Positions 4,005 to 64,000 are shown, counted from the stretch's first letter. The stretch is 64,000 nt of DNA from an uncultured Gemmatimonadales bacterium (GCA_963783385.1 CAWANJ010000009.1:32001-96000); one strand, 5' to 3'. Notes: generated by a model from the sequence alone, not told the origin. Numbers and translations are program-made.

Positions 4005-4083
4005 GACCGCTGACCACCGAAGGGTCCAAACAGCGCAGCGGATCGCCCTGAAGGGCCGTGCGCTGCGCCGACTCTACGATTCC

Positions 4084-9554: not shown

Positions 9555-9763
9555 CTCTCCACCACCGGTTCCAGGAAACTGCAGACTGCCCGCGCCGGTG
9601 AGAGCGGGAAAAGAGGCCGGGACCCGCCACGGAGAGGTCTACCGTCTCGCGGCGGTCTTCCGGAACGAGACGCGCCGGTGGCGGCGGAGGGCGGGGCGGG
9701 GCACTTTTGGGAACGCCGAGCCCCCACCGGATCCCGTCGCGTCCGCCGCGAGGAGGCGCCGCC

Positions 9764-46601: not shown

Positions 46602-49600
46602 TCACCCGCCCCGGCGGCCTCCGTCCGCCCGCATCTCCACGGTCTTCACCGGGGGAATCGGGTCGAGCCCCACGCCGCGGACCCGGTCCCGGAAGGGTCC
46701 GAAGGCCTCCCGCAGGACGCGGTTCGTCCGGCCGATCGCCTTCGACACGGCGCGCTGCCCCTGCTCGAGGCGCTTCCGCTCCTCGGGGTTGGGGGCGTAC
46801 CAGGCCACGTCGCTCATCCGGAAGGGCACGATCCCGATCTTGTTTCTCACGGTCACGCCTCCCGCGATCCCCTGGGGCGGGTGGATGGGACCCGTCCAGG
46901 CCTCCTCGACCGCCTCGAGACTGTCGATCACCGCCTTCCCGGCCTTCCGCAGCGAGTCCGCCGTCGAGCGGGACAACCCCGGCTGGTCGGGCAGGGCGCC
47001 CAGCACCTCGTTCACACGGATCCGCGCGGTGCGGAGGGCCTCGACGGCGTCGGCCGCGGCTCCATCCAGCCGGGCGACCTCGAGGAGCATGGCGCGCTTG
47101 GCCTCCCGCGCAGGCATGGGCGTGTCGATGCGCGGGTCGCCCTCCACCTTCAGCGTTCCGGTCGCCGTGTCGCCCCGGCTCACCACCCGGATCGTGAAGG
47201 TGCCGGGCAGCACGGCGGGACCCCGGCCCTTCGGGGGCACCGTGTCGGTGGGGGACTTCATCGCCTTCTCGAGCGCCGCCACCGAGCGCGGCTGGCGGGC
47301 GGGACCGTCGGTCGAGAAGTCCCACGTCCAGCGGCTCAGGCCCTCCCCGAGCTTCAGGCTGTCCTCGTACAGGACCGAGTCCCCCTGGAGGACCTGGACG
47401 GTGGCGCTCTTCGTGGGAACGGGCGGGACGGTGTCGCCGGCCGGGCCGACCTTCGTGTAGGCGTACGACGCGGTATCAGCGGACGCGGCGGCGCCCGACT
47501 TCGCGGAAGCGCCCTCGCGGGCCCCGTTCGCGCCGCCCTTCGCCGCCAGGCTGTCGGGCACGTGGGCCGCGATCGTGATCGTGGCGCCGTAGGGCGCGTT
47601 CTGTCCCTCGAACATCGAGCTCCCGGGCGAGTCGTAGCTCACGTTGAGGCCCTGCTGGTGCTCGATGGCCGTGCCCGGGTCGAACAGGTGGAGGTCGGCG
47701 TGGAGGAGGGACGGGTCGTCGGCGATGGCGCGCAGCGGCCGGACGTCGTCGATGACGTACACCGAGCGGCCGAAGGTGCCGATCACCAGGTCGCTCTCGC
47801 GTGAGTGGGTCGCGAGGGCATCCACCGGCACGCCATGTGGAAAGCCATATGTCCACTGGCTCCAAGTACTTCCACCGTTCAAGCTTAAGTAGAGTCCGAA
47901 CTCCGTGCCGAGCCACAGGAGCTTCGGGTTCACGGGGTCCTCGGCGATCGTGCGCGCCCAGCCGTCCACGCCCTCCGTCGGGAGCCGCTTCCAGCTCTTA
48001 CCGTAGTCGGTCGTCTCGTAGACGTAGGTCGTCCAGTCGCCCCGCATGTAGTCGTGGATGGCGGCGTAGGCGGTGCCGGCGGCGTGGCGCGAGGCCTCGA
48101 TGTGACTCACCCATGCGTTCCGCGGCTTGCCCGGCATGTTCCCCTGGACGTTGGTCCACGTCTTCCCGCCGTCTTGCGTGACCTGCACGTTCCCGTCGTC
48201 CGTGCCGGCCCAGATTACGCCCCGGCGCACCGGGCTCACGGCCAGGGTGAAGATGGTCGTGTAGCCCTCGGCACCCGTGACGTCGTAGGTGAGCCCGCCG
48301 CTCCTGTCCTGCTGCTGCCACGCGGGGTTGTCCGTGGTCAGGTCCGGACTGATCGGCTCCCAGCTGTTCCCGTCATCGGCCGAGCGGAAGACGAACTGCG
48401 CCCCCTGGTAGACCGTGTTCGAGTCGAACGGGCTGGTCACCACCGGGGCGTTCCAGTTGTAGCGGAGCTTCACCGAATCGGAGGGCGGCGCCGGCTTGAT
48501 CCAGTGCAGGTAGCCCGTCTCGAGGTCGTAGCGCATCAGGTTCCCCTGCTGCCACTCCGTGAAGCCGCGGCGGGGGTCGTTGGGATCGGGGATGGTGGCG
48601 AACCCGTCCCCGAAGCCGATCGACACCCACCGGTAGTTGCGGATCCCGCTCCCGCGCCACGTGTCCGCGGGGCCGCGCCAGTTCCCGTTGTCCTGGAGGC
48701 CGCCGTAAACGTGGTAGGGGACCTCGTCGTCCACGGCCACCTCGTAGTACTGGCCCAGCGGCAGGTTGGCGACGAAGCGCCACGTCTTCCCGCGGTCCTC
48801 GGAGATGTAGACGCCGCCGTCGTTGCTGTCGACCAGGTAGTCCGGGTCGTCGGGGTCGATCCACAGGGCGTGGTGGTCCACGTGGACGCCCTTGCCGCGC
48901 ACGATGCTCCGGAACGTCTTCCCTCCGTCGTCGCTGACGCTCAGGTCCCCGGCAATGTGGTAGACGCGGTCGGGGTTCTGCGGGTCGACCAGCAGCCGGT
49001 TGTAGTAGAAGGGACGGTTGCCCATGTCCCGGTTGTCGTTCACGGTCTTCCAGGTCTCGCCCCCGTCCTCCGAGCGGAGGAGCTGCGTCTTCCTGGCCTC
49101 CACGAGGGCGTAGACGATGGCAGGATTCGAGGGTGCGATGGCCACGTTGATCTTGCCTAGCGGGCCCTCGGGCAGGCCGTTCTTCGACGTCTCCCGCTTC
49201 CAGGTCTCGCCGCCGTCCCGGGAGCTGTACAGGCCGCTCCCCGGGCCGCCCGACTTGAAGAAGTAGGGCCACCGGCGGCGCTGCCACAGGGTGGCGATGA
49301 TCCTGTCCGGGTTGGACGGGTCCATGGCCAGATCCACCCCGCCCGTGGTGTCGTTGGCGGGGGCGAGGACGAGCGTCCAGTGCTGCCCGCCATCGGTGGT
49401 CTTGTAGATGCCGCGCTGGCCCCCCGCGTTCCAGAGCGGGCCGGTGGCCGCCACCCACGCCACCTTCGTGTCGTTCGGGTCCAGGAGGATCTGGGCGATG
49501 TGCTCGCTCTTCTCGAGCCCGACGTGCTTCCACGTCTTCCCGCCATCGATGCTCCGGAACATCCCCTTGCCCATGCCGACGGAGTTGCGCGGGTTGTCCT

Positions 49601-49953
49601 CCCCCGTGCCCACCCAGATCACGTCGTGGTTCTTCGGGTGGACGACGATTTCGCCCACCGAGAGGACCGGCTCCTCGTCGAAGATCGGGCCGGAAGGTGG
49701 TCCCGTTGTCGGTGCTCTCCCACACGCCGCCGGTGGCGGCGCCCACGAACAGCGTGTCGTGCATGCCCGGGATCCCCACCACGTCCCCGATGCGGCCGCT
49801 CATGGTGGCCGGCCCGATGGAGCGGGCCGCCATGGCGGAGAAGGCGACCGTGTCGGGCTTCGGCGCGGGCCGACGTCGGCCGAACATCTGGGCCGAGGCG
49901 GAGGCGGGGAACGAGGCGAGGACGAGGGCGAGGGTGAGCGTGCGCGGCTTCAT
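46602..49953 (-). CDS. Secreted BNR/Asp-box repeat (VPS10/sortilin-like) glycosyl hydrolase-like protein; frameshift near 49690
   Basis: RSIGPATMSGRI, many S.DGG.TW Asp-boxes, GGLQDNG, RYNWNAP, GTDDG, GTFGRS. Confidence 0.9.
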
Positions 49954-50154
49954 ACGCGGCTCCCTTGAGGTACCGTAGATTGGCCGGGTCGGGTGGGGGC
50001 ACGATGCGGCCGAGAGGCCGAAGGGGGCAAGCGGCGAACCGCCGGCCTCCGCGGCTTCCGGAGGCCGCTTCGCGGCCGTAGCTTACGGCGGAGACCCACC
50101 TTCCTTCGCCCCGCCTCGACGGGGCTCGTCCGCACCACCGAACGGGAGCGCCGC

Positions 50155-51672
50155 ATGGACCGCATACTGATCGGCAAGGGCGAGGGGCCCGTCTACCTGC
50201 TGGCCCCGTACGGGAACCGGCACGGACTCGTGGCGGGCGCGACCGGGACCGGAAAGACCGTCTCCCTCCTGGTGATGGCCGAGGGCTTCTCGCGTCTGGG
50301 CGTCCCCGTGGTGATGGCGGACGTCAAGGGCGACGTGGCGGGTCTGGCGATGCCCGGCACGCCGAACCCGAAGATCGACGAGCGGGCGGCGAGCATTGGA
50401 ATGGAGGACTGGGCGCCCGAGGGGAGCCCGGTCCTGTTCTGGGACCTGTACGGGAAGGCGGGCCATCCCGTGCGCACGACGATCAGCGAGATCGGCCCCA
50501 CGCTCCTGGCCCGCATGCTGGAGCTCAACGACACGCAGGAGGGCGTGCTGGAGGTCATGTTCCGGCTGGCCGACGAGCAGGGGCTCCTCCTCCTGGACAT
50601 GGACGACCTCCGGGCCCTGCTCGGCTACGTGGCCGAGCACCGCAAGGAAGTCTCGGAGCACTACGGACTGGTGGCCGGCGCCTCGATCGCGGCCATCCAG
50701 CGGTCCCTCCTGGCCCTGGACCGGGAGGGCGGCACGGAGTTCTTCGGAGAGCCGGCGCTGGAGCTCGCCGACCTGATGCGCACGGACCTGTCGGGCCGCG
50801 GCGTGATCAGCGTCCTGTCGGCAGACCAACTCATCCTCAAGCCCCGGCTGTACTCGAGCTTCCTCCTGTGGCTCCTCTCCGAGCTGTTCGAGCAGCTCCC
50901 GGAAGTGGGCGACCAGGACCGGCCGAGGCTGGTGTTCGTGTTCGACGAGGCGCACCTGTTGTTCGACGACGCGCCGCCCGCCCTGCGTCAGCGGGTCGAG
51001 CAGGTGGTGCGGATCATCCGATCCAAGGGGCGTGGGCGTCTACTTCTGCTCCCAGTTCCCCGACGACGTGCCCGACGAGATCCTGGGACAGCTGGGGAAC
51101 CGGATCCAGCACGCGCTGCGCGCCTACACGCCGCGCGACCAGAAGGCGGTGAAGACGGCGGCCGAGACCTTCGTGGCCAATCCGAACTGGACGTGGCCGA
51201 AGCCATCGGACAGCTCGGCGTGGGGGAGGCGCTCGTCTCGACCCTACAGGAGAAGGGCGTGCCCATGCCCGTGCAGCGAACCCTCATCTGCCCGCCGCGC
51301 TGCCGCATGGGCGCGATCACCGACGAGGAGCGCGCCGCGGTCCGTACGCGGAGTCCGGTCGGGGCGAAATACGACACGCCCGTGAACCGCGAGTCGGCCT
51401 ACGAGAAGCTGGCGGAGCGGGCCGAGGAGAAGGCGGCGCAGGCGCCCCCGCCGGTGGCCGGGGGCCGCGCCGGGGCGGCTGGCGGCGAGGCGGCCCGGGC
51501 CGGGAAGGATCCGGCCCGGAGCTCGCTCGGCGACATGCTGTGGGGGACCACCCGCCGCCAGGGGATGGTCGAGACCATGGCCAAGCAGGCGGCGCGAACG
51601 GTGGGAAGCCAGGTCGGGCGGCAGATCCTGCGCGGGGTGCTGGGAGGGATCCTGGGAGGGTCCAGGCGCTAG
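50155..51672 (+). CDS. HerA-like ATPase (DUF853/YjgR family); compensating frameshifts near 51030 and 51185
   Basis: [34 protein letters not shown]. The segment [29 protein letters not shown] is in another frame. Confidence 0.93.
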
Positions 51673-51708: not shown

Positions 51709-54126
51709 TCACTTCCAGTGCATCCACTTTGTCGCCCACGAGGTGATCCCCAGGTGGCGCTTGGCCATGATGACCGGGCCTTCGATCCGGGCCGCCACGT
51801 TCTCGGGCACGCTGCCGAACACCAGCTGCTGCAGGATGCCCTCCCGGGTCGCGCCGAGCACGGTGAGGTCGTGCTGCCGGGCTTCGTCGATGAGAGCCTG
51901 GGCGATGTCGGCACCCTCGATCAGCCTCACCTTGACGGGGATCCCCGCCACCTGCTCCCGCGCCCGGTCCAGGCGCGCCGTGGCTTCGGCCCGGGCGTTC
52001 TGGTCCGCGTCGGGCGGAACCACGGTCACCAGATGGAGCATGGCCTCCCGCGAGCGGGCCACCGAGGCCGCCACCTCCGCTGCCAGGACCGCGTGCGGGC
52101 CCCCGGCCAGCGGCGCCAGGATCGAACGGACGTGCCCCTGGGCCCGTGAGGCGACCTTCTCGACGAGCACGTCGCAGCGGGCCCGGGTGATGATCCGATC
52201 CAGGTTGCTGCCCAGGACGAACTCGGTCCGCCGCGAACGGCCCCGCCAGCCCACGAGCACGGCGTCGGCCTCCGTCTGCTCGATCGTGTTGAGGATGGCC
52301 TGGGACACGTCGTGCCCGATCTTGACGGTCCCGCTCACCGGCACGTCGGGAGCTTCGCCCTCGGCGTACTCGGTGACTTCGTCCACCAGCGTCCAGTGCT
52401 CGTCGACGAACCTCCGCCCCTCCTCGAGCGGCGTCTGCCGGGGGACCGTGACGATCGCCATGAGAAGGATCTCCGCGTCCCGGTCTCGCGCCACGTCGAT
52501 GGCCGTGCGGACCAGCTGGCGCGCGTGGGCCGGGTTGGCGATCGGCACCAGCAACCGCCGCGCCCGACCCGCCATCGCCTGCTTGGTGACCACGCTGGGG
52601 GTCTCGGCCTCCATGCGGGCCAGCTCCCGGCCCTCCACGTACGCGTAGTAGACGGCCACCCCGAGGACGAACCAAGCCGCCATGACCGTCAGGGCGACGA
52701 AGCCTTCCGAGCCGGAACCGAGTCCCGGTGTGAGCCCGAGGGAGCTGAGGAGGAACGGCGTCAGGACGAGCTGGAGCAGGATGGCCAGCAGCGGCGTGAC
52801 CGGTACGAACGGGACCCGGAAGGGGCGCTCCAGCTCCGGCCGGTTCCGGCGCATGGCGATGAGCGCCACGTTCACCATCGAGAACAGGAGGATGAACATC
52901 ACCGACGAGGAGGCCGCCACGCTCTCGATCGGCAGCGTCATGGCCATCACGGCGATGAGGGCCGAGGAGGCGATGATGGCCACGTGGGGCGCCCGCGTGA
53001 GGGCGTGGATCGAGGACATCCCGTCCGGGAGGAGCTTGTCCCGGCTCATCGAGAAGGCGATGCGCGAGGACGCGTACAGGGTCGCGTTCAGGGCGCTCAT
53101 GGTGGCGGCCAGGCCGGCGATGAGGAGGAGGGGGAGCCCGTAGGGCATGAACTGCCCCGCCGCCTGGATGATTCCCATCTCGCCCAGGTAGCCCAGCACC
53201 TGCCACGTGGTGATGCCCACCTGTCCCGTGAGTCCCGCCAGCCCGAGGAGGTGCGGGTTCACTTCGATGCCGCCGATGGCGGCGAACGCCACCAGGACGT
53301 AGATGGGCACGACCACCACGAGGGAGTAGAAGATGGCCTTCGGGATGTTGCGGGCCGGGTCGATGATCTCTTCACCCGACTGGACGATGATGTCGTAGCC
53401 CTCGAAGGCGACGTAGGTGAAGCCCATCGCTGCGAGCACGCCGCCCATCCCGGTCGCGAAGAACCCGCCTCCCGCCAGGAACTTGGTCGTCCAGCCAGGC
53501 TCGCGGATCGTGGCCGCGGTGCCGAAGCCGATGAACAGGCCGAGGATGAGGATCTTGACGCTGGTGACGACGATGCCGGCCTTCCCGGTCTCCTCGGCCC
53601 CCCGGTAGTTCACGTAGGCGAAGAGCGCGACCACGAGACCGGCCAGGATCTTCTCCCAGGCGTGGCGGCTCATGCCCAGGAAGTGGAGGCCCTCCGTCCC
53701 CCCGAAGAACAGGATGCCGATGAAGGCCGTGAAGAAGGAGCCGAAGGTGACGGCGTACAGGGCGCAGGCCACGGCCTGGGCGAACCAGTTGGTCCAGCCG
53801 GTATAGAAGCCCAGCGGCCGGGGCAGGGACTCGGACACCCAGTTGTAGGCGCCCCCCGAGCGCGGGAAGCTGGCCCCGAGCTCCGCGTAGGCCATGGCCG
53901 TGAGGAAGGCCACGGCGGCGTTCAGGGCGAAGGCGACCAGGAGCGCCGGGCCCGCCAAACCCGCGGCGAAGCCGGTGAGGGCGAACACGCCCGCCCCGAT
54001 CATCGCCCCGATGCCGATGAACGTGACGCTGACCAGGCCCATGTCCCGGGAGAGCTCTCCCTCCCGGGGCGCCCCCGCTTCAGGGCGCTCGCCCGCCTCC
54101 CCGCCTGCTGCGTCCGGGCTCACCAT
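51709..54126 (-). CDS. APC-family amino acid permease fused to two universal stress protein domains
   Basis: GAMIGAGVF, YAELG..FPRSGGAY, AFEGY, SRIAFSM, RPFRVP; then LLVPIANP, LGSNLDRI..CDVLV, FGSVPENV. Confidence 0.9.
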   Translation of the reverse strand: MVSPDAAGGEAGERPEAGAPREGELSRDMGLVSVTFIGIGAMIGAGVFALTGFAAGLAGPALLVAFALNAAVAFLTAMAYAELGASFPRSGGAYNWVSESLPRPLGFYTGWTNWFAQAVACALYAVTFGSFFTAFIGILFFGGTEGLHFLGMSRHAWEKILAGLVVALFAYVNYRGAEETGKAGIVVTSVKILILGLFIGFGTAATIREPGWTTKFLAGGGFFATGMGGVLAAMGFTYVAFEGYDIIVQSGEEIIDPARNIPKAIFYSLVVVVPIYVLVAFAAIGGIEVNPHLLGLAGLTGQVGITTWQVLGYLGEMGIIQAAGQFMPYGLPLLLIAGLAATMSALNATLYASSRIAFSMSRDKLLPDGMSSIHALTRAPHVAIIASSALIAVMAMTLPIESVAASSSVMFILLFSMVNVALIAMRRNRPELERPFRVPFVPVTPLLAILLQLVLTPFLLSSLGLTPGLGSGSEGFVALTVMAAWFVLGVAVYYAYVEGRELARMEAETPSVVTKQAMAGRARRLLVPIANPAHARQLVRTAIDVARDRDAEILLMAIVTVPRQTPLEEGRRFVDEHWTLVDEVTEYAEGEAPDVPVSGTVKIGHDVSQAILNTIEQTEADAVLVGWRGRSRRTEFVLGSNLDRIITRARCDVLVEKVASRAQGHVRSILAPLAGGPHAVLAAEVAASVARSREAMLHLVTVVPPDADQNARAEATARLDRAREQVAGIPVKVRLIEGADIAQALIDEARQHDLTVLGATREGILQQLVFGSVPENVAARIEGPVIMAKRHLGITSWATKWMHWK

Positions 54127-54791
54127 AGCCGCAACGATAGGCCCGTCGGACGCCTGCGGCCAGCGCGACGCGGGCCCGTCGACCTGGCCGCGCTCCCGAG
54201 GAGCGTCGCGAGCGTCCCGCCTCTCTGGCGTGGGGGGTCCGCACATTGGGGAGCGTACGATCCGTCGGTAGCGGAACGGGCCGGAGCGGACCCGCGTTGG
54301 TGCGGTGGGCGCCACCATGGCATCTTCGGCCACTTGCGAAGTGGCACCCGCACTCTGACGCGTGAGCGTCGGGCGGCGTGCCGACGACCCCGGCTGCTTG
54401 CACCCTTTCTCACAACCAAATTGTTCACACGTCTGCATTTAGTGACGCGGTCCCGCACCGATCGGCGCGCCGGCTCGGCGGAGGCCGGCGCGAGTGCCAA
54501 CCGCGCGCAGACTGGACTTTGCGGCCCTCAATCCCTTCCGGGCACGACTCTTCCACCCCACGACGCGCCTTTGCGGCTCTTGACGTCGCCGCGTACCGCC
54601 GGGCAGCGTCGCACGGGCGTCCGCGTGACACCCGTTTTTTCTAAATATCTGTTTGCATTCAGCTCGGGCGGCGTCCTCCGCCGCCCGACGCCTGCCGTCT
54701 GACGAACGCCGGTTCAAACCGGCGCCGTAGCCGCAGAGGTCGTCGGTCCTCTGCGAAAACGAACGATGTCCACCTTCGATGGGAGTCGTGC

Positions 54792-57377
54792 ATGCGTGGG
54801 TGTGTGGTTGAGAAGATCCGACTCGTGTCGCGGTGTGCGCTCATTGCGGGCGCCTCCCTCGCGTTCAGGGCCCCGCCCGCGCGGGCCCAGGGTGCGATCA
54901 CCGCCTCGCTGGTGACGCCCAACCCGACCCCGTACGTGTCCGACCTCCAGACCCGGCCGAGCTGGGTCATGCTCACGGTGACCAACTCGAGCGGGGAGGA
55001 CGTGCGGGCGCAGGTCACCGCCTCGCTGAGCCGCAGCGGCGGAGACGTGCTGGTGGCGACGCTCGGCCCGGCGCCGGCGCCGTTCATGACGATTCCGGGC
55101 AACGCGGCGGCCCCCGCGACGACGGTGATCACGGCGCCCCGGCTGGCCCCGTGGAGCCAGTTCGCCTATACGGGGGAGGCCGGCCAGCAGATCCACGACA
55201 CGGGCCGGCTGCCGGATGGGGACTGGACGCTGTGCGTCACCCTGACGGGCCTCGTGGGCACTCAGACCCAGCGGCCCCTGCCCGACGTGACGGCCTGCTC
55301 GACCTTCATCGTCCGCTACCCCGAGGCTCCCCAGCTCCTGCTTCCCACGAACGGCAGCGACCTCACGCTTTCGACGCCCGTGTTCCAGTGGGCCCCGGCC
55401 ACGGGCGTGGACGGGGCGTCCTATCGCTTCCGCGTCGTCGAGATGATCCGTGGGCAGACGCCGCGCGAGGCGGTGGAGGCCGACCGGCCCGTGCTGGAGA
55501 CGACCCTGTACCGGCAGACGGCGCTGGTGTATTCGCCGGCCGCCTACCCGCTGCGGGCCGGAGCCTGCTACGCGTGGCAGGTGCAGTCCGTCAAGCTCCA
55601 GGGGAGCGACGTGCAGCCGATCCTGGCCCCGGTGGGCACGAATCAGGGACGCAGCCAGATCTTCACGTTCTGCTACCGTCCGCCCCACGTGGCCCAGCTC
55701 CCCGACTCGCTGCCGTCCGACACGACCGCGGGGCCGGGTATCGCGCTCCGGCTGCCGGCGATGGGCGGATCCGGCGGCGGAGGGCCTCCGGCGTACGGCT
55801 CCCGAGCGCGCGGTCCGGGCGCGGGTCTCCAGGCGTCCCAGGGGGCGCCGGCGCCGATCACCGCCACGGGCGACATTACCGCGTACGGCGAGCTGTACGG
55901 CCTGTCCGGCACCGGGGGGCAGCCGGCCCGACCAGACCAGACCGGGCGGATCCAGGTCAACACCACCCTGTCCATGGCGAACGGCCTCGTGCAGGTCCCC
56001 CTCCAGGCCCTCGTCTCCACCGACCAGGTCAGCTTCCGCCAGGAGATCGACCGGCTCGGGGTCAGCCCGACCTGGCGCGATTACACCCTCCACGCGGGCT
56101 ACTACACGCCCCGCTTCACCGACCTGACGCTGTCCGACGCCACCCTGCTGGGCGGGGGCGTCGAGGGGCACCCGGGCGGACTCCGCTTCTCGGCCGGCTA
56201 CGGCCGCGCGCGCCGCTCCATCGCGCCCGACTCCGGTCAGCTCGTGCAGCCCGAATACAGCCGCGTCATGGGCGTGGGCCGGGTGGGCTGGGAGGCACCC
56301 TCGGGGCTCCTGGCCGAGTTCACGGTGGTGAGCGCCCGGGACGACCCGAGGTCCCTGGGGCTGTTCGGGGACACGACCTCGGCGGCCTCACCGCAGGAGA
56401 ACCTGGTCCTCGGCCTCCACGGCAAGGCGCCCATCGCCGAACGGCGCCTGTGGCTCGAGGTCGAGGGGACGCGCTCGACGTACAGGGCGGACCGGCGGGC
56501 TATGGGGGACGCGACGGCCGACGTGGCCGGCTCGGTGGGGCTCACCTGGCAGGTGCCGACGTGGTCGGCCGGCGGGAAGGTGACCTACGTCGGGCCGGGC
56601 TACCACGCGCTCGGCAACACCCAGCTCCAGTCGGACCAGGTGCGCTACGAGGCCACCGGGCAGCTCCACGAGGGGACGGTCTCCCTGGGGCTCCAGGCCG
56701 GGGTGCAGCAGAACAACCTGGACCACACGCTGCAGAGCACGACCAAGCTTCGCGGGATCTACAACTTCACCCTGAGCTGGCAGGCCACGCAGCAGTTCGG
56801 CCTGGACGGCAGCGCCAGCAACATCGTGAACGACGTGCAGAGCACCGACCCCATGCTGGCGCTCAAGAACGTGAACCGCTCCTTCGTGCTCACCCCCCAC
56901 GTGGCCTTCCAGACCGGGCAGGCGCAGAATGTCCTCACCGCATCGGGCACGTGGCAGACGGCCGACAACACGTCGCCCGGCATCACGGGGCTGGAGGACA
57001 CGCGCACGGGGAGCGCCATGCTCGCCTACACGGTGAGCTTCCCGTCCGGGGTGTCGCTCACCGCGACGGGTACCTTCACACAGGTCGAGGTGGACTCGCT
57101 GAAGACGAACCTGACCACGCTGTATCCGGCGCTCTCCTTCCCGCTCGTCCAGGGTCGCCTCAACACGATGCTCGGCCTGCAGTGGACGTGGAGCGGAATC
57201 GCGGGCTCGTCCTACGATCATGAGGTGTACCCGCAGCTCAACGCGTCCTTCGCGGTGTCGCCGCGCCAGCAGGTCACCCTGCAGCTCTCCCACCGGCACT
57301 ACGCCTACGGCGACGCCATGCCGGGCGCGACGTTCAACGAGAACCAGGGGAGCCTGACCTGGAAGTACACGTTCTGA
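54792..57377 (+). CDS. Secreted protein: TANFOR-like/Ig-like N-terminal module fused to a predicted outer-membrane beta-barrel
   Basis: Signal peptide ARA-Q; PYVSDL..LPDGDWTLCV, PQLLLP..PVFQW, YAWQVQ..NQGRSQIFTF; C-terminal ~480 aa of amphipathic strands ending LTWKYTF. Confidence 0.7.
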   Translation: MRGCVVEKIRLVSRCALIAGASLAFRAPPARAQGAITASLVTPNPTPYVSDLQTRPSWVMLTVTNSSGEDVRAQVTASLSRSGGDVLVATLGPAPAPFMTIPGNAAAPATTVITAPRLAPWSQFAYTGEAGQQIHDTGRLPDGDWTLCVTLTGLVGTQTQRPLPDVTACSTFIVRYPEAPQLLLPTNGSDLTLSTPVFQWAPATGVDGASYRFRVVEMIRGQTPREAVEADRPVLETTLYRQTALVYSPAAYPLRAGACYAWQVQSVKLQGSDVQPILAPVGTNQGRSQIFTFCYRPPHVAQLPDSLPSDTTAGPGIALRLPAMGGSGGGGPPAYGSRARGPGAGLQASQGAPAPITATGDITAYGELYGLSGTGGQPARPDQTGRIQVNTTLSMANGLVQVPLQALVSTDQVSFRQEIDRLGVSPTWRDYTLHAGYYTPRFTDLTLSDATLLGGGVEGHPGGLRFSAGYGRARRSIAPDSGQLVQPEYSRVMGVGRVGWEAPSGLLAEFTVVSARDDPRSLGLFGDTTSAASPQENLVLGLHGKAPIAERRLWLEVEGTRSTYRADRRAMGDATADVAGSVGLTWQVPTWSAGGKVTYVGPGYHALGNTQLQSDQVRYEATGQLHEGTVSLGLQAGVQQNNLDHTLQSTTKLRGIYNFTLSWQATQQFGLDGSASNIVNDVQSTDPMLALKNVNRSFVLTPHVAFQTGQAQNVLTASGTWQTADNTSPGITGLEDTRTGSAMLAYTVSFPSGVSLTATGTFTQVEVDSLKTNLTTLYPALSFPLVQGRLNTMLGLQWTWSGIAGSSYDHEVYPQLNASFAVSPRQQVTLQLSHRHYAYGDAMPGATFNENQGSLTWKYTF

Positions 57378-60300
57378 TGGGGGGGCGCGTGCTGATGGGG
57401 CTGATGGGACTGATGGGGCGGACGGCGGCGGGCGCGCGGGCGCGCGGGCGCACGATCGCCCCCGCGGGGCTCGCGTTGGTGGCGCTCGCGGCCGCGAGCG
57501 CACTCCCGGGCGGGCCGTCGACGCTGGAGGCCCAGCAGCCCACGATCACGGTGAGCGTGACCGTGCCGCAGCCCTCGGCCGACTGGCAGGCGTGGAGCAC
57601 GAGCCCGTCCATCGCCATGGTCGTGCTCCAGACCACCCTGCGGCAGCCGATCGCGGTGACCTCCTCCTTCAGGCTCCTCAAGGACGGTCAGCCGCTCGGC
57701 GAGGTGCCGGGCAACATCCAGCAGCTCCCCGCCGGGAGCCAGATCCTCAGGACACCGCAGCTCGCCGCATGGAGCCGCATGCGGTGGAGCGACATCGGGG
57801 CCTCCGTGCAGCGCAGCGGAACGCTGCCGGCCGGCGCCTACCAGCTGTGCCTGGACATCATCCCGCCACCGCCGAGCGCGGACATGTCCATTCGTCTCAT
57901 GACCATCCACCGGTGCGCGAGCTTCACGCTGACGGCTCCGAAGGTCCTGTCCACGCCGCCCATGACCGTCAACCTGCCGCCGCCCCACCTGATCGCGCCC
58001 GCCAGCCGATCCGAGTCGCGGCTGCCGCAGCCGACCTTCCAGTGGACGCCCGTGGTGTCGCGCGACCACCCGCGCCCGACCTACGTGCTGCGCATCGCCG
58101 AAATGCTCCCCGGGCAGACGCCCGAGCAGGCGCTGAACGCCGGTCGGCCCCTCCTGGACCGCGAGCTGATCGGGCGCACGACCTTCCCCTACCCGGCCTC
58201 GGCCCCGAAGCTCGAGCCCGGCAAGACGTACGCGTGGCAGGTGCAGGCGCTGGCCATGCCGAGGGCCGAGGCGGGCGGCGTGAAGCCGCTCGGCATGAAT
58301 CAGGGACGGAGCGAGATCTACACCTTCCGCCGACCGCCGGTGCGGGTGGCGCGGCAGAAGCCGCAGCCGACGGGTCCCACGGCGAAGCCCGGCCTCCTGT
58401 ACGACGCCGCGCTGTCCGGTCGGCTCCTGTATACGTTCCAGCCCAACGGCGTACCGAAGCCCCGGCGCGTGTCCACCTACCTGGGCCAGCCTCCGACGGG
58501 GACGATCTTCGAGATGCAGGGCCAGCCGGGCGGGGGGCACCCGGTCGGCGGCGGGAAGACGGGTGGCCAGCAGGGCGGCCAGGGGGCCGGCGACCAGTCG
58601 GCGCCGTCCGGCGGGCCGGTGCATCTCCAGGACGCTCCGCACACGGACCCCCTCGCGGGCGTGACCGTGCGCCTCCTCGTGCATTACCGGACGGGCGACC
58701 GGTGGGTGCGCGGCGGGACGCTGGCGGCGGGCGGCAAGACGTACACGGACAACGGCAAGGTGGTGGCCAGCGCCCGCACGGCGGATGACGGTCGGTTCAC
58801 CTTCTTCTTCCACGACGACCTGCCGACGGGCCTCATCGCCCTGCACACGACGGTGTCCAGCGGGAGCGGCGAGTTCGGCTTCCACGAGAGCGGCGCGAAC
58901 CTGGCCCGCTTCTACACCCTCGAGGTCGGGGACCCGCACTACGCGAGCCCCTCCGACGAGCTCGAGAAGGGGCAGGGGGGCACCGGCGACGTGGGCACGC
59001 TCGTGGCCCTGGTGCGGAGTTACCGGCTGCAGGTCCGGGTCACACGGGCGGGCACGAAGGCCACGAAGACGGGCCTGCGGGTGCAGCTCCTCCGCCCGTT
59101 CCGGGCCGCCGGCGTGCCCGCCAACGAGGGCGACGCGCCGACCCCTCGCGGGAAGTACGGACTGTTCGAGATCATCGGGCAGGGCGTCACGGGCAACGAC
59201 GGCACCGTGACCTTCCGCCACCTGGTCAAGAACGTGGGTCCCGCCGACCGTTACTCGGTGCGGGTGTCCAGCGACCCCAACAACGTCAACGCGCGCTACT
59301 ACCCGGCGTCCGTCCCGGTCAGCCATTCGATGCCGCTCGATGATCCCGAGGGTTGGGACGATGCCGTGTTCAACGAGGGCTACAGGTCCGACCGGGTCTA
59401 CCGGGCCGACGTGCCCGTGTCCCCGCAGCCCCCGGAGTACTTCGGGACGGTGATCCGGGCCGACACCAGGAAGCCGGTCCCCGAGGCGCTCATGGTCCTG
59501 GTGCAGCACGGCGTGGGAGGCTCGATGATTTTGCATGCCGTGAAGCCTTCGGACGACGGGCAGTTCGTCATCAAGGGCTTCCAGGTGAACCGGAAGTACG
59601 TGGTGTACGTGCACGCCCCCGGCTTCCGTCCCGACTCCAACGTGTTCATGCCGGACTCGGGGGTGGCCACCCACTTCGACCACCAGCTCCGGCCCGACGC
59701 CACCGTGACGCTCTCCCTGGTGGACGAGAACGGGGCGCCCGTGCCGGGGCGGGTGCGCGTGGGCAGCGGAGCCCAGGTCGAAGCACAGCCGGTGTACGGG
59801 AACGACCAGGGCCAGGAGCTGCGGGCGGGCGCCGGTGGAGTGGCGTGGTACACGCGCGGCTCCGGCGGCGCGACGGGTGGCCAGACATCGTCGTCCGGTC
59901 AGACTCCGACGTCCGGCCAGGCGCGACGGGCGGGGACGTCGACCTCGGCGGGCGGCATGACGCGGACCGGGAGCGCGGCGCAGGCCGCGAGCTCCGGCCT
60001 CGTGCACCTGCAGGCGTGGCGCGTCACCCTCCCGGCCAACTCGGGAACCCAGACCGTGCACGTGGACGCGGGGCCCGATTACTTCCCGACCGACACCACC
60101 CTGACGATCCCGAAGGGGGCCTCGGACCTCGGCCGGGCGGTCGTCTACCTGCGCATGCGGCGGCTGCACGTGAAGGTGGTCGCCCTCGAGAAGGCGCCCG
60201 CTCCGCCAGCGGGCCGGAGGCGGCCGACCCGGGGCGGCATGCGCATCGTGCACGTCACCAGCGGCGCCTCGGAGTCCCCGATCGAGGGGGCGGTCGTGAG

Positions 60301-63202
60301 CCTCCCGGACGAGCCCGGCCAGCTCTCGGCCACCACGGACGGCTCGGGAGACGTCACCTTCGAGTGGAAGGCGACCTCGCCCGACTCGATCGCGCAGGTG
60401 ACGGTCCGAATCGAGCCGCCGGCCGGCTCGGACTTCACGAACGCCTCCGCCCAGGTTCCGGTGCCCGAGAGCCGCACGCCCCGCACCTCGGTCCTGGGAC
60501 TGCTCCGGGGCGCCACCGTGCAGGGGACGGTGTACGCCGGCGCCGGCACGGACTCGATCGTGGCCGGGGCGCGGGTGTTCATCCCCGGGGCGGGCCCGGG
60601 CGGGACCGACCTGTCGGACTCGACGGACGCCAAGGGCCACTACGCCCTGCACGGAGCGCCGGCCGGGGCTCACTGGGTCCGGGCCGGGAAGGCGGGCTCG
60701 CACTTCACGGGTGACTCGGCCCGCGTGGCGGCGAAGGCGGGAGCGTCGGCGACGCAGGACTTCCACCTGACCGGGGTGGATGGCCTTCCCACGTCCCTCC
60801 TCGGCCTCGCGATCGAGGTGCAGAGCTACACGAAGACGGCGCAGGGCGCGGTCCTCAGCGGCCGGTTCACCGACGTGCCCGGCAACGACGCCTTCGCTCC
60901 CCGGACGCAGGGACTGACCCTGGCGTTCGACAGCGTGACCGTGACCGGCCAGGGCAAGGACGCCGCCCCGCCCGGCGGCACGGTGCACGTGGTCGACAGC
61001 GACCTGCCGCTCTCCCTGTATGGGACCTACCTGGTCCGGCAGCACGCGGAGGGCGGCCTGACGGTGGAGGACCGGGGGCAGGGGCAGGGCGCCGTGGTGG
61101 GTCCGGCGCAGCTCCTGTCGGGATCCTTCTCCCTGACCACGGCCGAGCTGACCTTCCGGGATTCACTCTTCCTCCTGTCACCCGGGGCGAGCGGCACGGC
61201 CGCCGCCCGGGTGGCCACGCTCGAGGCCGGCGGCGCCTCGCCGGCCCCTTCCGGCGGCTACGGGATCGGGACCTCGCAAGGGGGCGACGCCGGACTCACG
61301 CTGTACGGGTTCGGGGCCGACGCGGCGGCGGCCTCCTCGCGCCTGGCGCCCAAGGCGCTCACCCTCAATGCGACCCTCCACACGGCGATCCCGGGCGTGA
61401 AGGACCTGGCGATCCACGTGCCCGACCTCACGGTGACGCCCGGTCAGGGAGCGGGCGCCGGCCTGCAGCCGGCGAAGGGCGACCAGGCGCTGTCCCTGTC
61501 CCTGGGCGCGTGGACGCTGGAGTCGCCGAGCTGGTCCCTCGGCAAGGGGCGGCTGCACCTGGTGCAGGGCGTGGTGCGCGTGCCGATGATCCAGGGCCGC
61601 CCCAACAGCGACATCGACTTCCCGTTCACCGGCCTCGAGGTCACGCCCACCAGTCTCGAGGGCGGGAAGTTCGGAGGCGGCCCCCTCCTCCTGGGCGGGT
61701 TCGTGCCTCTCCAGGTGAAGGGCGGGGTCACCTTCGTGCGCGACACGCCGACGGGCCCATGGAAGCTATTCGGGGACGGCGGCACGATCGCGGCGCTCCC
61801 GGGCATGGCGTCCACCGACGAGATCCACGTGCAGAGCTTCGACTTCCTCTCCAACGGGAAGAAGAGCTTCTCGATGGAGCCGGGGACGTCGGTGCGGCTG
61901 TACGGCACGGGGGACCTGGCGATCTCGAACCTGGGGATCACCGAGTCGTCCGTGAGCTTCGCGGGTGGGCTCGACCTCCACGTCCCGGGCCTGGACCCGC
62001 AGGCCGTGGTCGTCGACTACACGCGTCCCGCGTCCGGCCACGCGCCGACCTTCAAGTTCAACCCGATCGACATCCAGCCCTTCGACATCGGTGGCGCGAA
62101 GGTGTCGGTGCACCAGGGGACCCTCGACGCCTCCGGCTTCCAGGGCAATGGGACCGTGTCGGTGCCGGGCAAGTTCACCGTCGCCTCGCACTTCACTCGC
62201 TCGCCGCTCGGTCCGAACCAGAAGATCGAGGCGCTCCCGCTCCCGCACGCGACCCTCGATGTGGGACAGGTGGCCATCTCGAAGCTCCAGGGCGGGGCGA
62301 AGGTGGCGGCAGGCAAGTGGGCCACGGACTACCAGGGCCACATGGACGTGGGCGGCCAGGTGTCCGGCGACGTCACGATCGGCGTGGAGGGGACCGACGT
62401 CACCGCGGGGACGGGCGGGCTGGCGGTCAAGAACATTCCGACCCCGTTCGGGAACATGGCGATCACCATGAACTTCCCTGAGCAGCGGCTCGAGGGCTCG
62501 GTCCAGATGGACAAGGACATCGCCGCCGGCGCGCACGTGAAGGGCACCACCGAGATGGTCATCAGCGGCAAGCCTTCCGACCGCTATTGGTACCTGTTCA
62601 CCGGAGCCGCGTTCTCGCTGAAGACGCCACACATGTCGGGCACGGCGGCCCTCCTGATCGGCTCGGCGACCCTGAAGGCGGATCTCCTGGCCCGCTACGC
62701 CAAGTACGGCCGCCGGCCGGTGCCGGCCCAGTTCCACGTGATCAACGGATTCTTCATGGAGGGCGAGGTGTCGATCCCGGTGCCGATCTGTCCCAACGGC
62801 GCCTTCGACATCGGGGTGGCTAGCGTCGAGGTGTGGTGCAACGTGTGGGGCGACGTACGGCTGGGGGCCAATTTCCAGCAGGCCAACACCTACTTCGTGG
62901 GCGTCGGGGCGGGGATCGACGCGGGCATCAAGGGCGGGGTGGGCATGGGGCTGTGCGTGCACGTGGCGGCGGAGGTGAAGGCGGGCCTGGACGGGGAGGG
63001 CGCCTACCGGAGCGATGGCGCCTGGTACGCCCGGGGCGACGCCAACCTGGACCTGAACGGGAGCGCCTCCTACGGGGTCGGCCTGGACGACGTGTGCCTG
63101 GACCACACGACCAGCGTCCACATCGGGCTGGGCGCGGAGGCCCAGCTCGGCTACGACTGGGCCCGGAACGTGGGGCCGCACGCGAAGGTGTACTTCCGAT
63201 GA
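57377..63202 (+). CDS. Giant (1941 aa) secreted protein: TANFOR-like module, prealbumin/carboxypeptidase-regulatory-like repeats, long Gly-rich beta-strand C-terminus
   Basis: LPAGAYQLCL, PHLIAP..PTFQW, YAWQVQ..NQGRSEIYTF; repeats such as TADDGRF, TGNDGTV, SDDGQF, TDGSGDV, TDAKGHY; TGATG overlap with the upstream gene. Confidence 0.75.
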   Translation: MGGRVLMGLMGLMGRTAAGARARGRTIAPAGLALVALAAASALPGGPSTLEAQQPTITVSVTVPQPSADWQAWSTSPSIAMVVLQTTLRQPIAVTSSFRLLKDGQPLGEVPGNIQQLPAGSQILRTPQLAAWSRMRWSDIGASVQRSGTLPAGAYQLCLDIIPPPPSADMSIRLMTIHRCASFTLTAPKVLSTPPMTVNLPPPHLIAPASRSESRLPQPTFQWTPVVSRDHPRPTYVLRIAEMLPGQTPEQALNAGRPLLDRELIGRTTFPYPASAPKLEPGKTYAWQVQALAMPRAEAGGVKPLGMNQGRSEIYTFRRPPVRVARQKPQPTGPTAKPGLLYDAALSGRLLYTFQPNGVPKPRRVSTYLGQPPTGTIFEMQGQPGGGHPVGGGKTGGQQGGQGAGDQSAPSGGPVHLQDAPHTDPLAGVTVRLLVHYRTGDRWVRGGTLAAGGKTYTDNGKVVASARTADDGRFTFFFHDDLPTGLIALHTTVSSGSGEFGFHESGANLARFYTLEVGDPHYASPSDELEKGQGGTGDVGTLVALVRSYRLQVRVTRAGTKATKTGLRVQLLRPFRAAGVPANEGDAPTPRGKYGLFEIIGQGVTGNDGTVTFRHLVKNVGPADRYSVRVSSDPNNVNARYYPASVPVSHSMPLDDPEGWDDAVFNEGYRSDRVYRADVPVSPQPPEYFGTVIRADTRKPVPEALMVLVQHGVGGSMILHAVKPSDDGQFVIKGFQVNRKYVVYVHAPGFRPDSNVFMPDSGVATHFDHQLRPDATVTLSLVDENGAPVPGRVRVGSGAQVEAQPVYGNDQGQELRAGAGGVAWYTRGSGGATGGQTSSSGQTPTSGQARRAGTSTSAGGMTRTGSAAQAASSGLVHLQAWRVTLPANSGTQTVHVDAGPDYFPTDTTLTIPKGASDLGRAVVYLRMRRLHVKVVALEKAPAPPAGRRRPTRGGMRIVHVTSGASESPIEGAVVSLPDEPGQLSATTDGSGDVTFEWKATSPDSIAQVTVRIEPPAGSDFTNASAQVPVPESRTPRTSVLGLLRGATVQGTVYAGAGTDSIVAGARVFIPGAGPGGTDLSDSTDAKGHYALHGAPAGAHWVRAGKAGSHFTGDSARVAAKAGASATQDFHLTGVDGLPTSLLGLAIEVQSYTKTAQGAVLSGRFTDVPGNDAFAPRTQGLTLAFDSVTVTGQGKDAAPPGGTVHVVDSDLPLSLYGTYLVRQHAEGGLTVEDRGQGQGAVVGPAQLLSGSFSLTTAELTFRDSLFLLSPGASGTAAARVATLEAGGASPAPSGGYGIGTSQGGDAGLTLYGFGADAAAASSRLAPKALTLNATLHTAIPGVKDLAIHVPDLTVTPGQGAGAGLQPAKGDQALSLSLGAWTLESPSWSLGKGRLHLVQGVVRVPMIQGRPNSDIDFPFTGLEVTPTSLEGGKFGGGPLLLGGFVPLQVKGGVTFVRDTPTGPWKLFGDGGTIAALPGMASTDEIHVQSFDFLSNGKKSFSMEPGTSVRLYGTGDLAISNLGITESSVSFAGGLDLHVPGLDPQAVVVDYTRPASGHAPTFKFNPIDIQPFDIGGAKVSVHQGTLDASGFQGNGTVSVPGKFTVASHFTRSPLGPNQKIEALPLPHATLDVGQVAISKLQGGAKVAAGKWATDYQGHMDVGGQVSGDVTIGVEGTDVTAGTGGLAVKNIPTPFGNMAITMNFPEQRLEGSVQMDKDIAAGAHVKGTTEMVISGKPSDRYWYLFTGAAFSLKTPHMSGTAALLIGSATLKADLLARYAKYGRRPVPAQFHVINGFFMEGEVSIPVPICPNGAFDIGVASVEVWCNVWGDVRLGANFQQANTYFVGVGAGIDAGIKGGVGMGLCVHVAAEVKAGLDGEGAYRSDGAWYARGDANLDLNGSASYGVGLDDVCLDHTTSVHIGLGAEAQLGYDWARNVGPHAKVYFR

Positions 63203-64000
63203 GGACAGGGCGGGGGTCAGCGCGGGGGATCGGCGTGTCGCACGCGGCCGGGCGCGGAGCAGGGCGCACGGCCGCGCGCCGCAGGCGCGTGACCGCGGCG
63301 GGGATTGCCCTCGTCGGGGCCCTGGCCGCGGGCGCGGCGGCCCCGGCCCGACTCGCCGCCCAGAGCGCCACGGCCGCGCGGGCGGGCGACACGATCGCGT
63401 TCGCGAGCCCGCGTGGCGCGTACGTGTGGATGAAGGGCACCGTGGTGTCGGCGGCCCACCCCGTGGGCGGGGTGGTGGCGCACCGGCTGGAGCGCTCGCG
63501 TCCGGGGGCATCCTGGGGAAAGGTGGCCGACGTGAGCGCCGTGCCCGACGCGCGCAGCTTGTTCGCGCGGCTCGACTCGGCCACGAGCCGCGCCGTCGTC
63601 CGATCGCTGGGCCAGAAGGACGAGGCGAGCGCCTGGAACTACATCGTCCGGAACCCCAGGGCCGACTCCCTGGCGGCGATCCTCGGAAACGACGACGTGC
63701 GTCTGGCGCTCGGCCTCTACGGTCTCGATCCGTCGCCCCGGAACGGCGAGACGTGGCGCTACCGGGTGAGCGACGTGGACGCGGACGGGGCCGTCTCCCA
63801 CCCCGTGGTGTCGAACCCGGTGAGCTTCCCGGCCCGGGCGAGCTTCGATTCCGTACATGTGGCCGACAGCCGGGGCGCCGACTCGGTGGTCGTGGTCCGC
63901 TGGTACGTGGGCGACGTGGGAACCCGCGCCAAGACGGTCGAGATCTGGCGGCGCGCGGGACGGACGGGCGAGTTCGAGGAGGTCGACTCCGTGGCGGTCA
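63199..64000 (+). CDS. Secreted fibronectin type III-like repeat protein, 3' end outside the window
   Basis: Open from ATG 63199 (ATGA overlap) to the window end. Signal peptide ..LAA-Q, HRLERS, LALGLYGLD..GETWRYRVSDVD, VVRW..VEIWRR. Confidence 0.7.
   Translation, partial: MRTGRGSARGIGVSHAAGRGAGRTAARRRRVTAAGIALVGALAAGAAAPARLAAQSATAARAGDTIAFASPRGAYVWMKGTVVSAAHPVGGVVAHRLERSRPGASWGKVADVSAVPDARSLFARLDSATSRAVVRSLGQKDEASAWNYIVRNPRADSLAAILGNDDVRLALGLYGLDPSPRNGETWRYRVSDVDADGAVSHPVVSNPVSFPARASFDSVHVADSRGADSVVVVRWYVGDVGTRAKTVEIWRRAGRTGEFEEVDSVAV

Follow-up and report, generated by a model that had tools for sequence, protein, structure and literature searches.

The closest described counterparts of the locus reported here are the gene neighbourhoods of TANFOR proteins. 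TANFOR (model TIGR02542) marks a class of Bacteroidetes polymorphic toxins (Jana, Salomon and Bosis 2020, PMC7073777), and in that paper the domain is said to be almost exclusive to Bacteroidetes and to lie right after the signal peptide in proteins of 1,400–2,600 residues. Type IX secretion system (T9SS) cargo was reported there to be enriched near TANFOR genes, and the T9SS itself to be present in more than 95% of TANFOR genomes; export of TANFOR proteins by this system was offered as a hypothesis, and one toxin domain was tested. In rows 198–212 of the supplementary table, the upstream protein is domainless and of 547–564 aa in 15 of 15 cases, with a signal peptide in 14 and a −17 nt overlap in six; the first downstream protein has 641–671 aa in 12 of the 15, with Fn3/COG3401 in seven of these 12, and one giant carries a CarboxypepD_reg domain. 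The words "barrel", "porin" and "Gemmatimonad" are absent from the main text, and "Gemmatimon" occurs 0 times in the supplements. The term "TANFOR" proved rare in the literature in a whole-word full-text search. Here, a locus of similar layout is described in a 64,000-nucleotide stretch of DNA from an uncultured Gemmatimonadales bacterium (GCA_963783385.1 CAWANJ010000009.1:32001-96000), hereafter the window. It is composed of three genes encoding a predicted outer-membrane beta-barrel protein, a giant secreted protein and a fibronectin type III (Fn3)-repeat protein.

We hold with moderate confidence that the window contains the Gemmatimonadota form of a three-gene envelope cassette which also underlies many Bacteroidota TANFOR loci, and in which the barrel is the outer-membrane partner of the giant. 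The parts of the cassette are a barrel of ~24–26 strands, a Sec-exported giant of ~2,000 residues with a TANFOR-like module, and an Fn3-repeat protein of ~650–700 residues. Homology of this cassette to that of the TANFOR loci is highly probable; whether the barrel is a dedicated translocator or anchor is evenly poised. TANFOR giants were already known from their computational description in 2020, and what is new is the occurrence in Gemmatimonadota, the non-toxin form with a conserved tip, the fusion of module and barrel, and the constant barrel partner.

In function, the nearest analogies would be two-partner secretion and MtrB-like sheath barrels. Two-partner secretion and contact-dependent growth inhibition pair a TpsB/CdiB barrel with a TpsA/CdiA giant that has an N-terminal TPS domain; this type Vb (T5b) barrel is of the Omp85 type, with 16 strands and POTRA domains. 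MtrB, FimD/PapC and LptD are barrels of 24–26 strands by which another protein or a lipid is held or passed on. PorP/SprF outer-membrane proteins are partners of giant type B cargo of the T9SS, for example SprB, encoded next to them.

The locus contains three open reading frames (ORFs) on the plus strand, with the following features, in which "module" denotes an N-terminal domain shared by the products of genes 1 and 2 and pLDDT is the per-residue confidence of the structure models.

54439–54791, no strand: intergenic region between the divergent amino-acid permease/universal stress protein (Usp) gene and gene 1, presumed promoter region (ORF map)
54792–57377, plus: gene 1, 861 aa; signal peptide and TANFOR-like N-module, then a disordered linker and an outer-membrane beta-barrel (translation, AlphaFold2, homologues)
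54888–55682, plus: gene 1 N-module, residues 33–297 (BLASTP against gene 2, alignment, secondary structure)
55683–55847, plus: gene 1 disordered Gly/Pro/Ala-rich linker, residues 298–352 (pLDDT < 50)
55848–57374, plus: gene 1 beta-barrel domain, residues 353–861 (DSSP strands, Foldseek, profile search)
57377–63202, plus: gene 2, 1941 aa; signal peptide followed by the N-module, a stalk of beta-sandwiches and a conserved beta-rich region at the C-terminus
57533–58336, plus: gene 2 N-module, residues 53–320 (BLASTP, alignment)
60515–60772, plus: gene 2 CarboxypepD_reg, residues 1047–1132 (Pfam PF13620, 6e-14)
60794–63199, plus: gene 2 C-terminal region, residues 1140–1941 (block conservation, AlphaFold2)
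63199–64000, plus: gene 3, first 267 codons of a signal-peptide Fn3-repeat protein of ~690 residues, which leaves the window

The GC content at the third codon position was 0.93 in both complete genes, versus ~0.55 at position 2; this fits DNA of 70% GC, so genes 1 and 2 are real coding frames. The junction of genes 1 and 2 reads ttcTGATGggg, with the stop TGA at 57375–57377 and the ATG at 57377–57379, a 1-base overlap; that of genes 2 and 3 reads cgATGAgg, with the ATG at 63199–63201 and the TGA at 63200–63202, a 4-base overlap. The original prediction of three coupled genes thus stands as to frames and overlaps, with TGATG placed at 57375–57379, its earlier start at 57374 being one base off. 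Since stop and start codons overlap, the sequence suggests that genes 1–3 are co-translated. A scan of 54300–64000 found no sigma-70-like promoter or intrinsic terminator motif. From leader sequences inspected by eye, all three proteins would be exported by Sec. The leaders of genes 1–3 and their orthologues end in A-x-A or AAQ followed by Q, G or S (ARA-QG, LEA-QQ and LAA-QS), which looks like a lineage-typical signal-peptidase site.

To place the locus among its relatives, one genome per GTDB species was scanned, yielding 14 loci in 13 genomes, two of the loci being pieces of one metagenome-assembled genome (MAG). The titles of thirteen of these loci (12 of the 13 genomes) name Gemmatimonadota lineages, and that of the remaining one reads "uncultured bacterium". 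Named homologues of genes 1 and 2 are called "hypothetical" or "carboxypeptidase-like regulatory domain-containing protein" and come from Candidatus Palauibacterales, Gemmatimonadota and Gemmatimonadales, the first being the source of the nearest named protein. Both lines agree with the Gemmatimonadota host that had been proposed from the sequence. Genes for the barrel, the giant and the Fn3 protein were present together in 13/13 related genomes, with gene 3 in 13 of the 14 loci, so the co-occurrence on which the original prediction turned does extend to other genomes. Clustering of all flanking ORFs revealed no other conserved neighbour across the loci.

Gene order was not constant. Six loci show the window type, barrel-giant-Fn3, and seven the permuted order giant-Fn3-barrel (clade B). 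The clade B barrel proteins are devoid of N-module, and those of three of the six window-type loci retain only its second subdomain. Overlaps are kept in clade B: an ATGA joins the Fn3 gene to the barrel gene in 6/6 loci examined, and an ATGA or GTGA joins the giant to the Fn3 gene in four of six. Because linkage and coupling outlast the rearrangement, their persistence is strong evidence that the three products function together. Two of the related loci carry disrupted genes: gene 2 of L004 has in-frame stops in the N-module (11309–12115), and genes 1 and 2 of L012 each extend over two frames (splits at about 10832 and about 16565). These may be either pseudogenes or errors of long-read MAG assemblies.

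The module was then compared between the two complete proteins. Residues 33–317 of gene 1 aligned with residues 54–340 of gene 2 at 29% identity (BLASTP, E = 1e-29), defining a module of ~265 residues, and each of the shared motifs previously listed for the two genes was recovered in this alignment. When 17 copies from the window and from related loci were aligned, 32 columns proved invariant, including two Cys in the first half (C116 and C137 of gene 1) and FxW, YAW.V and G.N.G.S...F in the second half. In the AlphaFold2 model of gene 1 the module forms two beta-sandwich subdomains, at residues ~36–175 and 181–295. The first of them (36–175 in gene 1, ~54–190 in gene 2) lies right after the hydrophobic leaders ending ARA-QG and LEA-QQ, so that genes 1 and 2 show the placement typical of TANFOR, a domain of ~147 residues that follows the signal peptide at the N-terminus of a large protein. 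The association with Fn3 domains reported for TANFOR proteins was likewise observed, an orthologue of gene 3 matching Pfam fn3 at 3.5e-8 and gene 2 weakly at 6.6e-4. The second subdomain resembles Fn3 in pattern only, and the module profile gave a non-significant probability of 1.6% against gene 3 (hhalign). A PDB sequence search with the module profile returned 0 matches.

When 24 module-bearing sequences were examined, TIGR02542 was the only family that recurred on the first half of the module. It matched six of the 24, each on the first subdomain and collinearly over nearly the full profile (positions 3–142 of 145). The best match was the protein P0056 (3.7e-9, 36.6 bits; residues 28–158 versus profile positions 3–141), which the module profile recovered in turn at 7.5e-17. 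It was followed by the gene 2 orthologue of locus L005 (2.3e-4, 21.1 bits) and by sequences of L013 (0.071), a Persicobacter giant described below (0.084), L008 (0.11) and L007 (0.15). Because one model among 18,950 recurs six times at the same place, the signal is not due to chance, and the first subdomain is best described as a putative remote relative of TANFOR. Two module-bearing proteins have further features. P0042, of the gene 2 family (2380 aa), contains four extra partial N-modules (residues 30–548) ahead of a full copy (553–805), a tandem expansion; and the body of P0056 (residues 618–991) weakly matches DUF6603-annotated proteins of Betaproteobacteria (E = 1e-4, 22% identity), the matches sitting on the Mycetohabitans plasmids NZ_CP132742.1 and NZ_CP062180.1.

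Gene 1 had been predicted to end in a large beta-barrel, and structure modelling and Foldseek bore this out. The AlphaFold2 model, based on a 20-sequence alignment (mean pLDDT 74.5), consists of a signal-peptide helix, two beta-sandwiches, the linker and a barrel of ~25 (24–26) long strands by DSSP at residues 356–861, with pLDDT mostly 70–93 and a C-terminus ending ...WKYTF. Searched against the PDB with Foldseek, it retrieved only very large barrels (MtrB, FimD/PapC ushers, LptD) at 7–12% identity, the best being MtrB 6r2q_B (E = 1e-9, TM 0.36/0.45), with ushers at TM about 0.28–0.3/0.45–0.48. As judged from the model, this likeness is one of fold class, not of family. No family in Pfam or NCBIfam was found for gene 1, a PDB sequence search with the barrel profile gave 0 matches, and none of its 21 homologues in a set of 5.8 billion proteins has a functional name.

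A profile of the barrel family was built from 13 barrel domains and searched against 1.84 billion representatives of clusters at 50% identity. It retrieved 2,594 representative clusters at E ≤ 0.001, 1,830 at ≤ 1e-10 and 760 at ≤ 1e-30. Members are mostly stand-alone proteins of 530–600 aa. For none of 27 scanned representatives, from 150 listed, did the barrel reach any Pfam or NCBIfam cut-off, the nearest sub-cut-off models being BBP2 (22.9 bits, cut-off 26.2) and OMP_b-brl (19.2 bits). Atlas neighbours of the barrel were clusters of ~545-aa hypothetical proteins, commonest in Bacteroidota (score 0.97); DUF6029, at 0.92, is a lead only. The Bacteroidota affinity of the family rests on Atlas, on amino-acid composition and on four plasmid records.

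Proteins in which the barrel is extended provide a link between barrel and module. Among 200 proteins gathered, 169 matched the barrel profile and 25 had more than 200 residues ahead of the barrel; this extension was the N-module in 24 of the 25 (one such fusion protein being from Candidatus Eisenbacteria) and three LysM domains in the other (P0177, 866 aa). The barrel protein of the window's lineage appears to have acquired its own copy of the module. Repeated fusion of module and barrel is a domain-fusion sign and argues that the two act together. LysM binds peptidoglycan, and the LysM-barrel fusion suggests a periplasmic location for the N-terminal extension of such barrels.

The giant, gene 2, has 19 homologues in the same 5.8-billion-protein set. 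In addition to CarboxypepD_reg, kept in 19/19 family members, Pfam gave weak matches to fn3 and bMG3, and NCBIfam gave no match. Conservation rises towards the C-terminus: over the 19 members, in 100-residue blocks, the frequency of the top residue was 0.71–0.75 at positions 1701–1900 versus 0.41–0.67 elsewhere. An AlphaFold2 model of residues 1140–1941 (13 sequences, pLDDT 64) was confident only over a beta-rich part at ~1300–1620; the last ~260 residues, which contain four conserved Cys and end ...VYFR, were modelled as long beta-hairpins with pLDDT 45–65. Searches with this C-terminus were uninformative, with TM ≤ 0.15 in Foldseek, two chance matches and no relative in a PDB sequence search with its profile, and a probability of 0.1% against the barrel profile (hhalign); an Atlas search with gene 2 found its own cluster only. 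Neither Pfam nor NCBIfam revealed a toxin family in gene 2 or its 19-member family, and no immunity-like gene was present after gene 2 or in the conserved neighbourhood. Gene 2 would accordingly be a structural or adhesive surface protein.

Gene 3 had been called Fn3-like from the part within the window. Its 267 residues there match nothing in Pfam or NCBIfam, and the call was upheld on a full-length orthologue in the close relative L001 (13416–15497; 694 aa, 84% identical over the common part), which yielded the Pfam fn3 match given above and also matches Fn3 chains in the PDB. This orthologue overlaps L001 gene 2 by ATGA, as in the window. Downstream of it lie genes for a MATE efflux protein, a SIS-domain protein and a Na/H exchanger; since these are unrelated, the L001 operon ends after gene 3. 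The earlier statement that no toxin domain or immunity gene is visible therefore holds in the window and, in L001, to the end of the operon past gene 3.

Counterparts in Bacteroidota were sought by tblastn of one barrel representative against PLSDB plasmids, which returned four records; these were read with local hidden Markov models made from our own alignments and with Pfam. Three of the four barrel-bearing records also contain a module-bearing giant in the fetched stretch, and two of those giants are toxins. In Runella sp. SP2 (pSP2_2), a 565-aa barrel precedes a giant of 2151 aa, a gene 3 homologue of 719 aa (1.8e-36), a PKD protein and then a giant with a T9SS type A sorting domain; the 2151-aa giant contains the N-module (41.6 bits) and CarboxypepD_reg, and it matches gene 2 weakly and collinearly in the middle and at the end. 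In Persicobacter sp. JZB09, the 5' part encodes an SprB/Por_Secre_tail protein, a CHU_C protein, a 714-aa protein and a PorP/SprF-OmpA protein; next come a barrel of 599 aa, a 1563-aa giant whose body matches the TANFOR-positive P0056, and a gene 3 homologue of 693 aa (1.6e-37), and after these lies a giant, at least 1967 aa long, that bears the N-module (67 bits) together with fn3 and PT-HINT. In Emticicia oligotrophica (pEMTOL03), an SprB-repeat giant is followed by a barrel of 614 aa, a 2719-aa protein and an SMI1/KNR4 (SUKH) immunity gene; residues 37–287 of the 2719-aa protein form a full N-module (44.6 bits), which is accompanied by fn3 and, at the C-terminus, a WHH nuclease. The gene 3 model detected no homologue at this locus. 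The genes of the fourth record, Bergeyella porcorum, are fragmented: the barrel and gene 3 models match ORFs in the fetched stretch, the Emticicia N-module has a tblastn match elsewhere on the record, and SprB, sorting-domain, deaminase and PKD pieces are annotated nearby. The cassette, or a barrel with a module-bearing giant, thus recurs in Bacteroidota, and some such giants are polymorphic toxins. The Emticicia toxin (L015 13833–22448) is annotated as "HNH endonuclease" and was missed both by TIGR02542 and by the 2020 TANFOR list, from which the Runella giant is also absent (PMC7073777). TANFOR toxins thus probably form a broader class than the list shows.

With these elements at hand, the locus could be compared to known systems. 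It shares with the TANFOR loci of rows 198–212 a signal-peptide protein of ~550 aa, a giant and an Fn3 protein of ~650 aa, often with a 17-nt overlap there; in the window the upstream barrel part has 509 aa, and the Fn3 protein falls in the range of ~650–700 aa. By contrast, the window's host is a gemmatimonadote, no toxin tip or immunity gene is present, and the barrel protein carries a module of its own. As in two-partner secretion, a barrel gene adjoins that of a Sec-exported giant whose N-terminal domain is a possible recognition element, and the Emticicia order of barrel, toxin and immunity gene is that of cdiBAI. However, the window's barrel has ~24–26 strands instead of 16, its N-terminal domains are Ig-like and a third subunit, the Fn3 protein, is conserved; neither an Omp85/POTRA nor a TPS family was detected in genes 1–3 with Pfam and NCBIfam, which places the locus outside T5b. 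The likeness of gene 1 to chaperone-usher systems stays at the level of fold (TM 0.28–0.48), with no match to an usher family and no plug; the conserved unit includes neither a chaperone gene nor a cytochrome gene, so that the locus is no chaperone-usher system. PorP/SprF pairs resemble it in that an outer-membrane protein gene adjoins the gene of a giant surface protein in the Fibrobacterota-Chlorobiota-Bacteroidota (FCB) group, and the Persicobacter barrel adjoins a PorP/SprF-OmpA gene; they differ in that the window's barrel has ~510 residues versus the 273 positions of the Pfam PorP_SprF model and its giant has no type B C-terminal domain. As PF11751 and TIGR03519 matched neither gene 1 nor the 27 barrel-family representatives, the barrel is not a PorP/SprF member. 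The system had been called uncharacterised, and no match to a characterised one emerged.

Combined, the data can be framed as a mechanism. The three proteins would be exported by Sec and the barrel inserted into the outer membrane; the giant's TANFOR-like module would dock, in the periplasm, on the barrel or on the module fused to it; and the giant would be threaded outward or held at the surface by the barrel, while the Fn3 protein would add a third structural subunit. The roles of anchor or translocator, passenger and accessory assigned to the barrel, the giant and the Fn3 protein by the original prediction are compatible with this scheme, in which binding, topology and export or anchoring are all conjectural. 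We consider it possible, though doubtful, that the barrel family is the dedicated translocator of an unrecognised FCB-group secretion pathway resembling two-partner secretion, with the module as secretion or docking signal and the Fn3 protein as third subunit. If so, such a pathway would explain how TANFOR polymorphic toxins exit without the T9SS and would reach beyond Bacteroidota into Gemmatimonadota. The occurrence of the cassette outside Bacteroidota, its constant barrel partner and the repeated fusion of module and barrel together offer a concrete candidate, open to testing, for how TANFOR proteins are exported or anchored, and a barrel family of thousands of clusters that deserves a name.

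Several observations weigh against a barrel-partnered cassette shared with TANFOR loci. Membership in TANFOR was taken as a TIGR02542 match above the curated 67-bit cut-off, or, by the criterion of the TANFOR paper, an RPS-BLAST E < 1e-7 over at least 90 aa; genes 1 and 2 lie outside it, with no TIGR02542 match at E ≤ 1 and, for the isolated modules, none at E ≤ 10, and all six matches obtained elsewhere are under the cut-off. The TANFOR-like signal originally noted is thus sustained by sub-cut-off matches in six of 24 sequences and by the order and sizes in the published table, and not by the window's own two copies. In rows 1–15 of the same table the immediate upstream gene encodes a PKD lipoprotein of ~450 aa in 14 of 15 cases (PMC7073777), and the 547–564-aa proteins of rows 198–212 would belong to the barrel family on size and position only. 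The LysM fusion fits docking and gives no sign of transit through the barrel. Finally, the Runella and Persicobacter loci lie among T9SS cargo and a PorP/SprF gene, so that the T9SS may export their giants.

This last point leads to an alternative that we regard as rather unlikely, namely that the giant and the Fn3 protein are T9SS cargo, the barrel serving only as surface anchor or shuttle in the manner of PorP/SprF or PorV. It accounts for the type A sorting-domain giant beside the Runella cassette, for the SprB/Por_Secre_tail, CHU_C and PorP/SprF-OmpA genes directly upstream of the Persicobacter barrel, and for the published link between TANFOR genes and the T9SS (PMC7073777); a review also allows a possible T9SS in Gemmatimonadetes. 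However, no T9SS sorting domain of type A (TIGR04183/PF18962) or type B (TIGR04131/PF13585), and no PorP/SprF model, matched genes 1–3 or the full-length L001 gene 3 with the Pfam and NCBIfam libraries, which did detect sorting domains in the Persicobacter neighbours. No T9SS component was found among 31 ORFs of the window scanned with Pfam, and Gemmatimonadota are missing from the supplements of the TANFOR paper. Were the barrel only an anchor of T9SS cargo, the result would still help to annotate a surface module of three genes that is widespread.

Self-export is less probable still. Gene 2 would then export or anchor itself through its C-terminal beta-domain like an autotransporter, gene 1 being an unrelated porin-like protein with a common Ig-like domain. 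The hairpins of the last ~260 residues of gene 2, their standing as its most conserved part and the ...VYFR ending, as in several Gemmatimonadota barrels, would suit such a domain, but the low pLDDT of the model, the four conserved Cys, the Foldseek and hhalign values given above and the lack of a match to any autotransporter family do not, and both the co-occurrence and coupling with the barrel gene and the 24 module-barrel fusions would be left unexplained. That gene 2 is a TANFOR-class toxin with an unrecognised toxin domain is very improbable, despite the module-bearing giants of Emticicia (WHH nuclease with SUKH) and Persicobacter (PT-HINT), which are polymorphic toxins. The 1701–1900 block is the most conserved of the protein, contrary to what a polymorphic tip would show; the stop of gene 2 is overlapped by gene 3, with no small gene behind it, and gene 3 is succeeded by the barrel gene in clade B or else by unrelated genes. 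Gene 2 as a polymorphic toxin was rejected on its conserved C-terminus and the lack of an immunity gene behind it.

The remainder of the window includes two ORFs with gene-like GC at the third codon position and no Pfam match at E ≤ 1e-4, at 6666–9638 (minus, 990 aa) and 2925–4073 (minus, 382 aa). On the 5' side of the cassette lie, all on the minus strand, the genes of a TonB-dependent receptor with a CarboxypepD_reg N-terminus (41895–44240), a HAMP histidine kinase (44370–45827) and a BNR/sortilin-repeat protein (46602–49658). These three families also flank the cassette in L002, which reflects local synteny of close relatives only. Between the BNR/sortilin-repeat and permease/Usp genes, a lone HerA-like helicase gene was found at 49993–51672 (plus; Pfam HerA_C, 3.4e-178), and a Pfam scan of its neighbours showed no adjoining partner nuclease. 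The ORF at 51709–54438 (minus), divergent from gene 1, encodes a fusion protein of 909 aa in which an amino-acid permease is joined to two universal stress protein domains.

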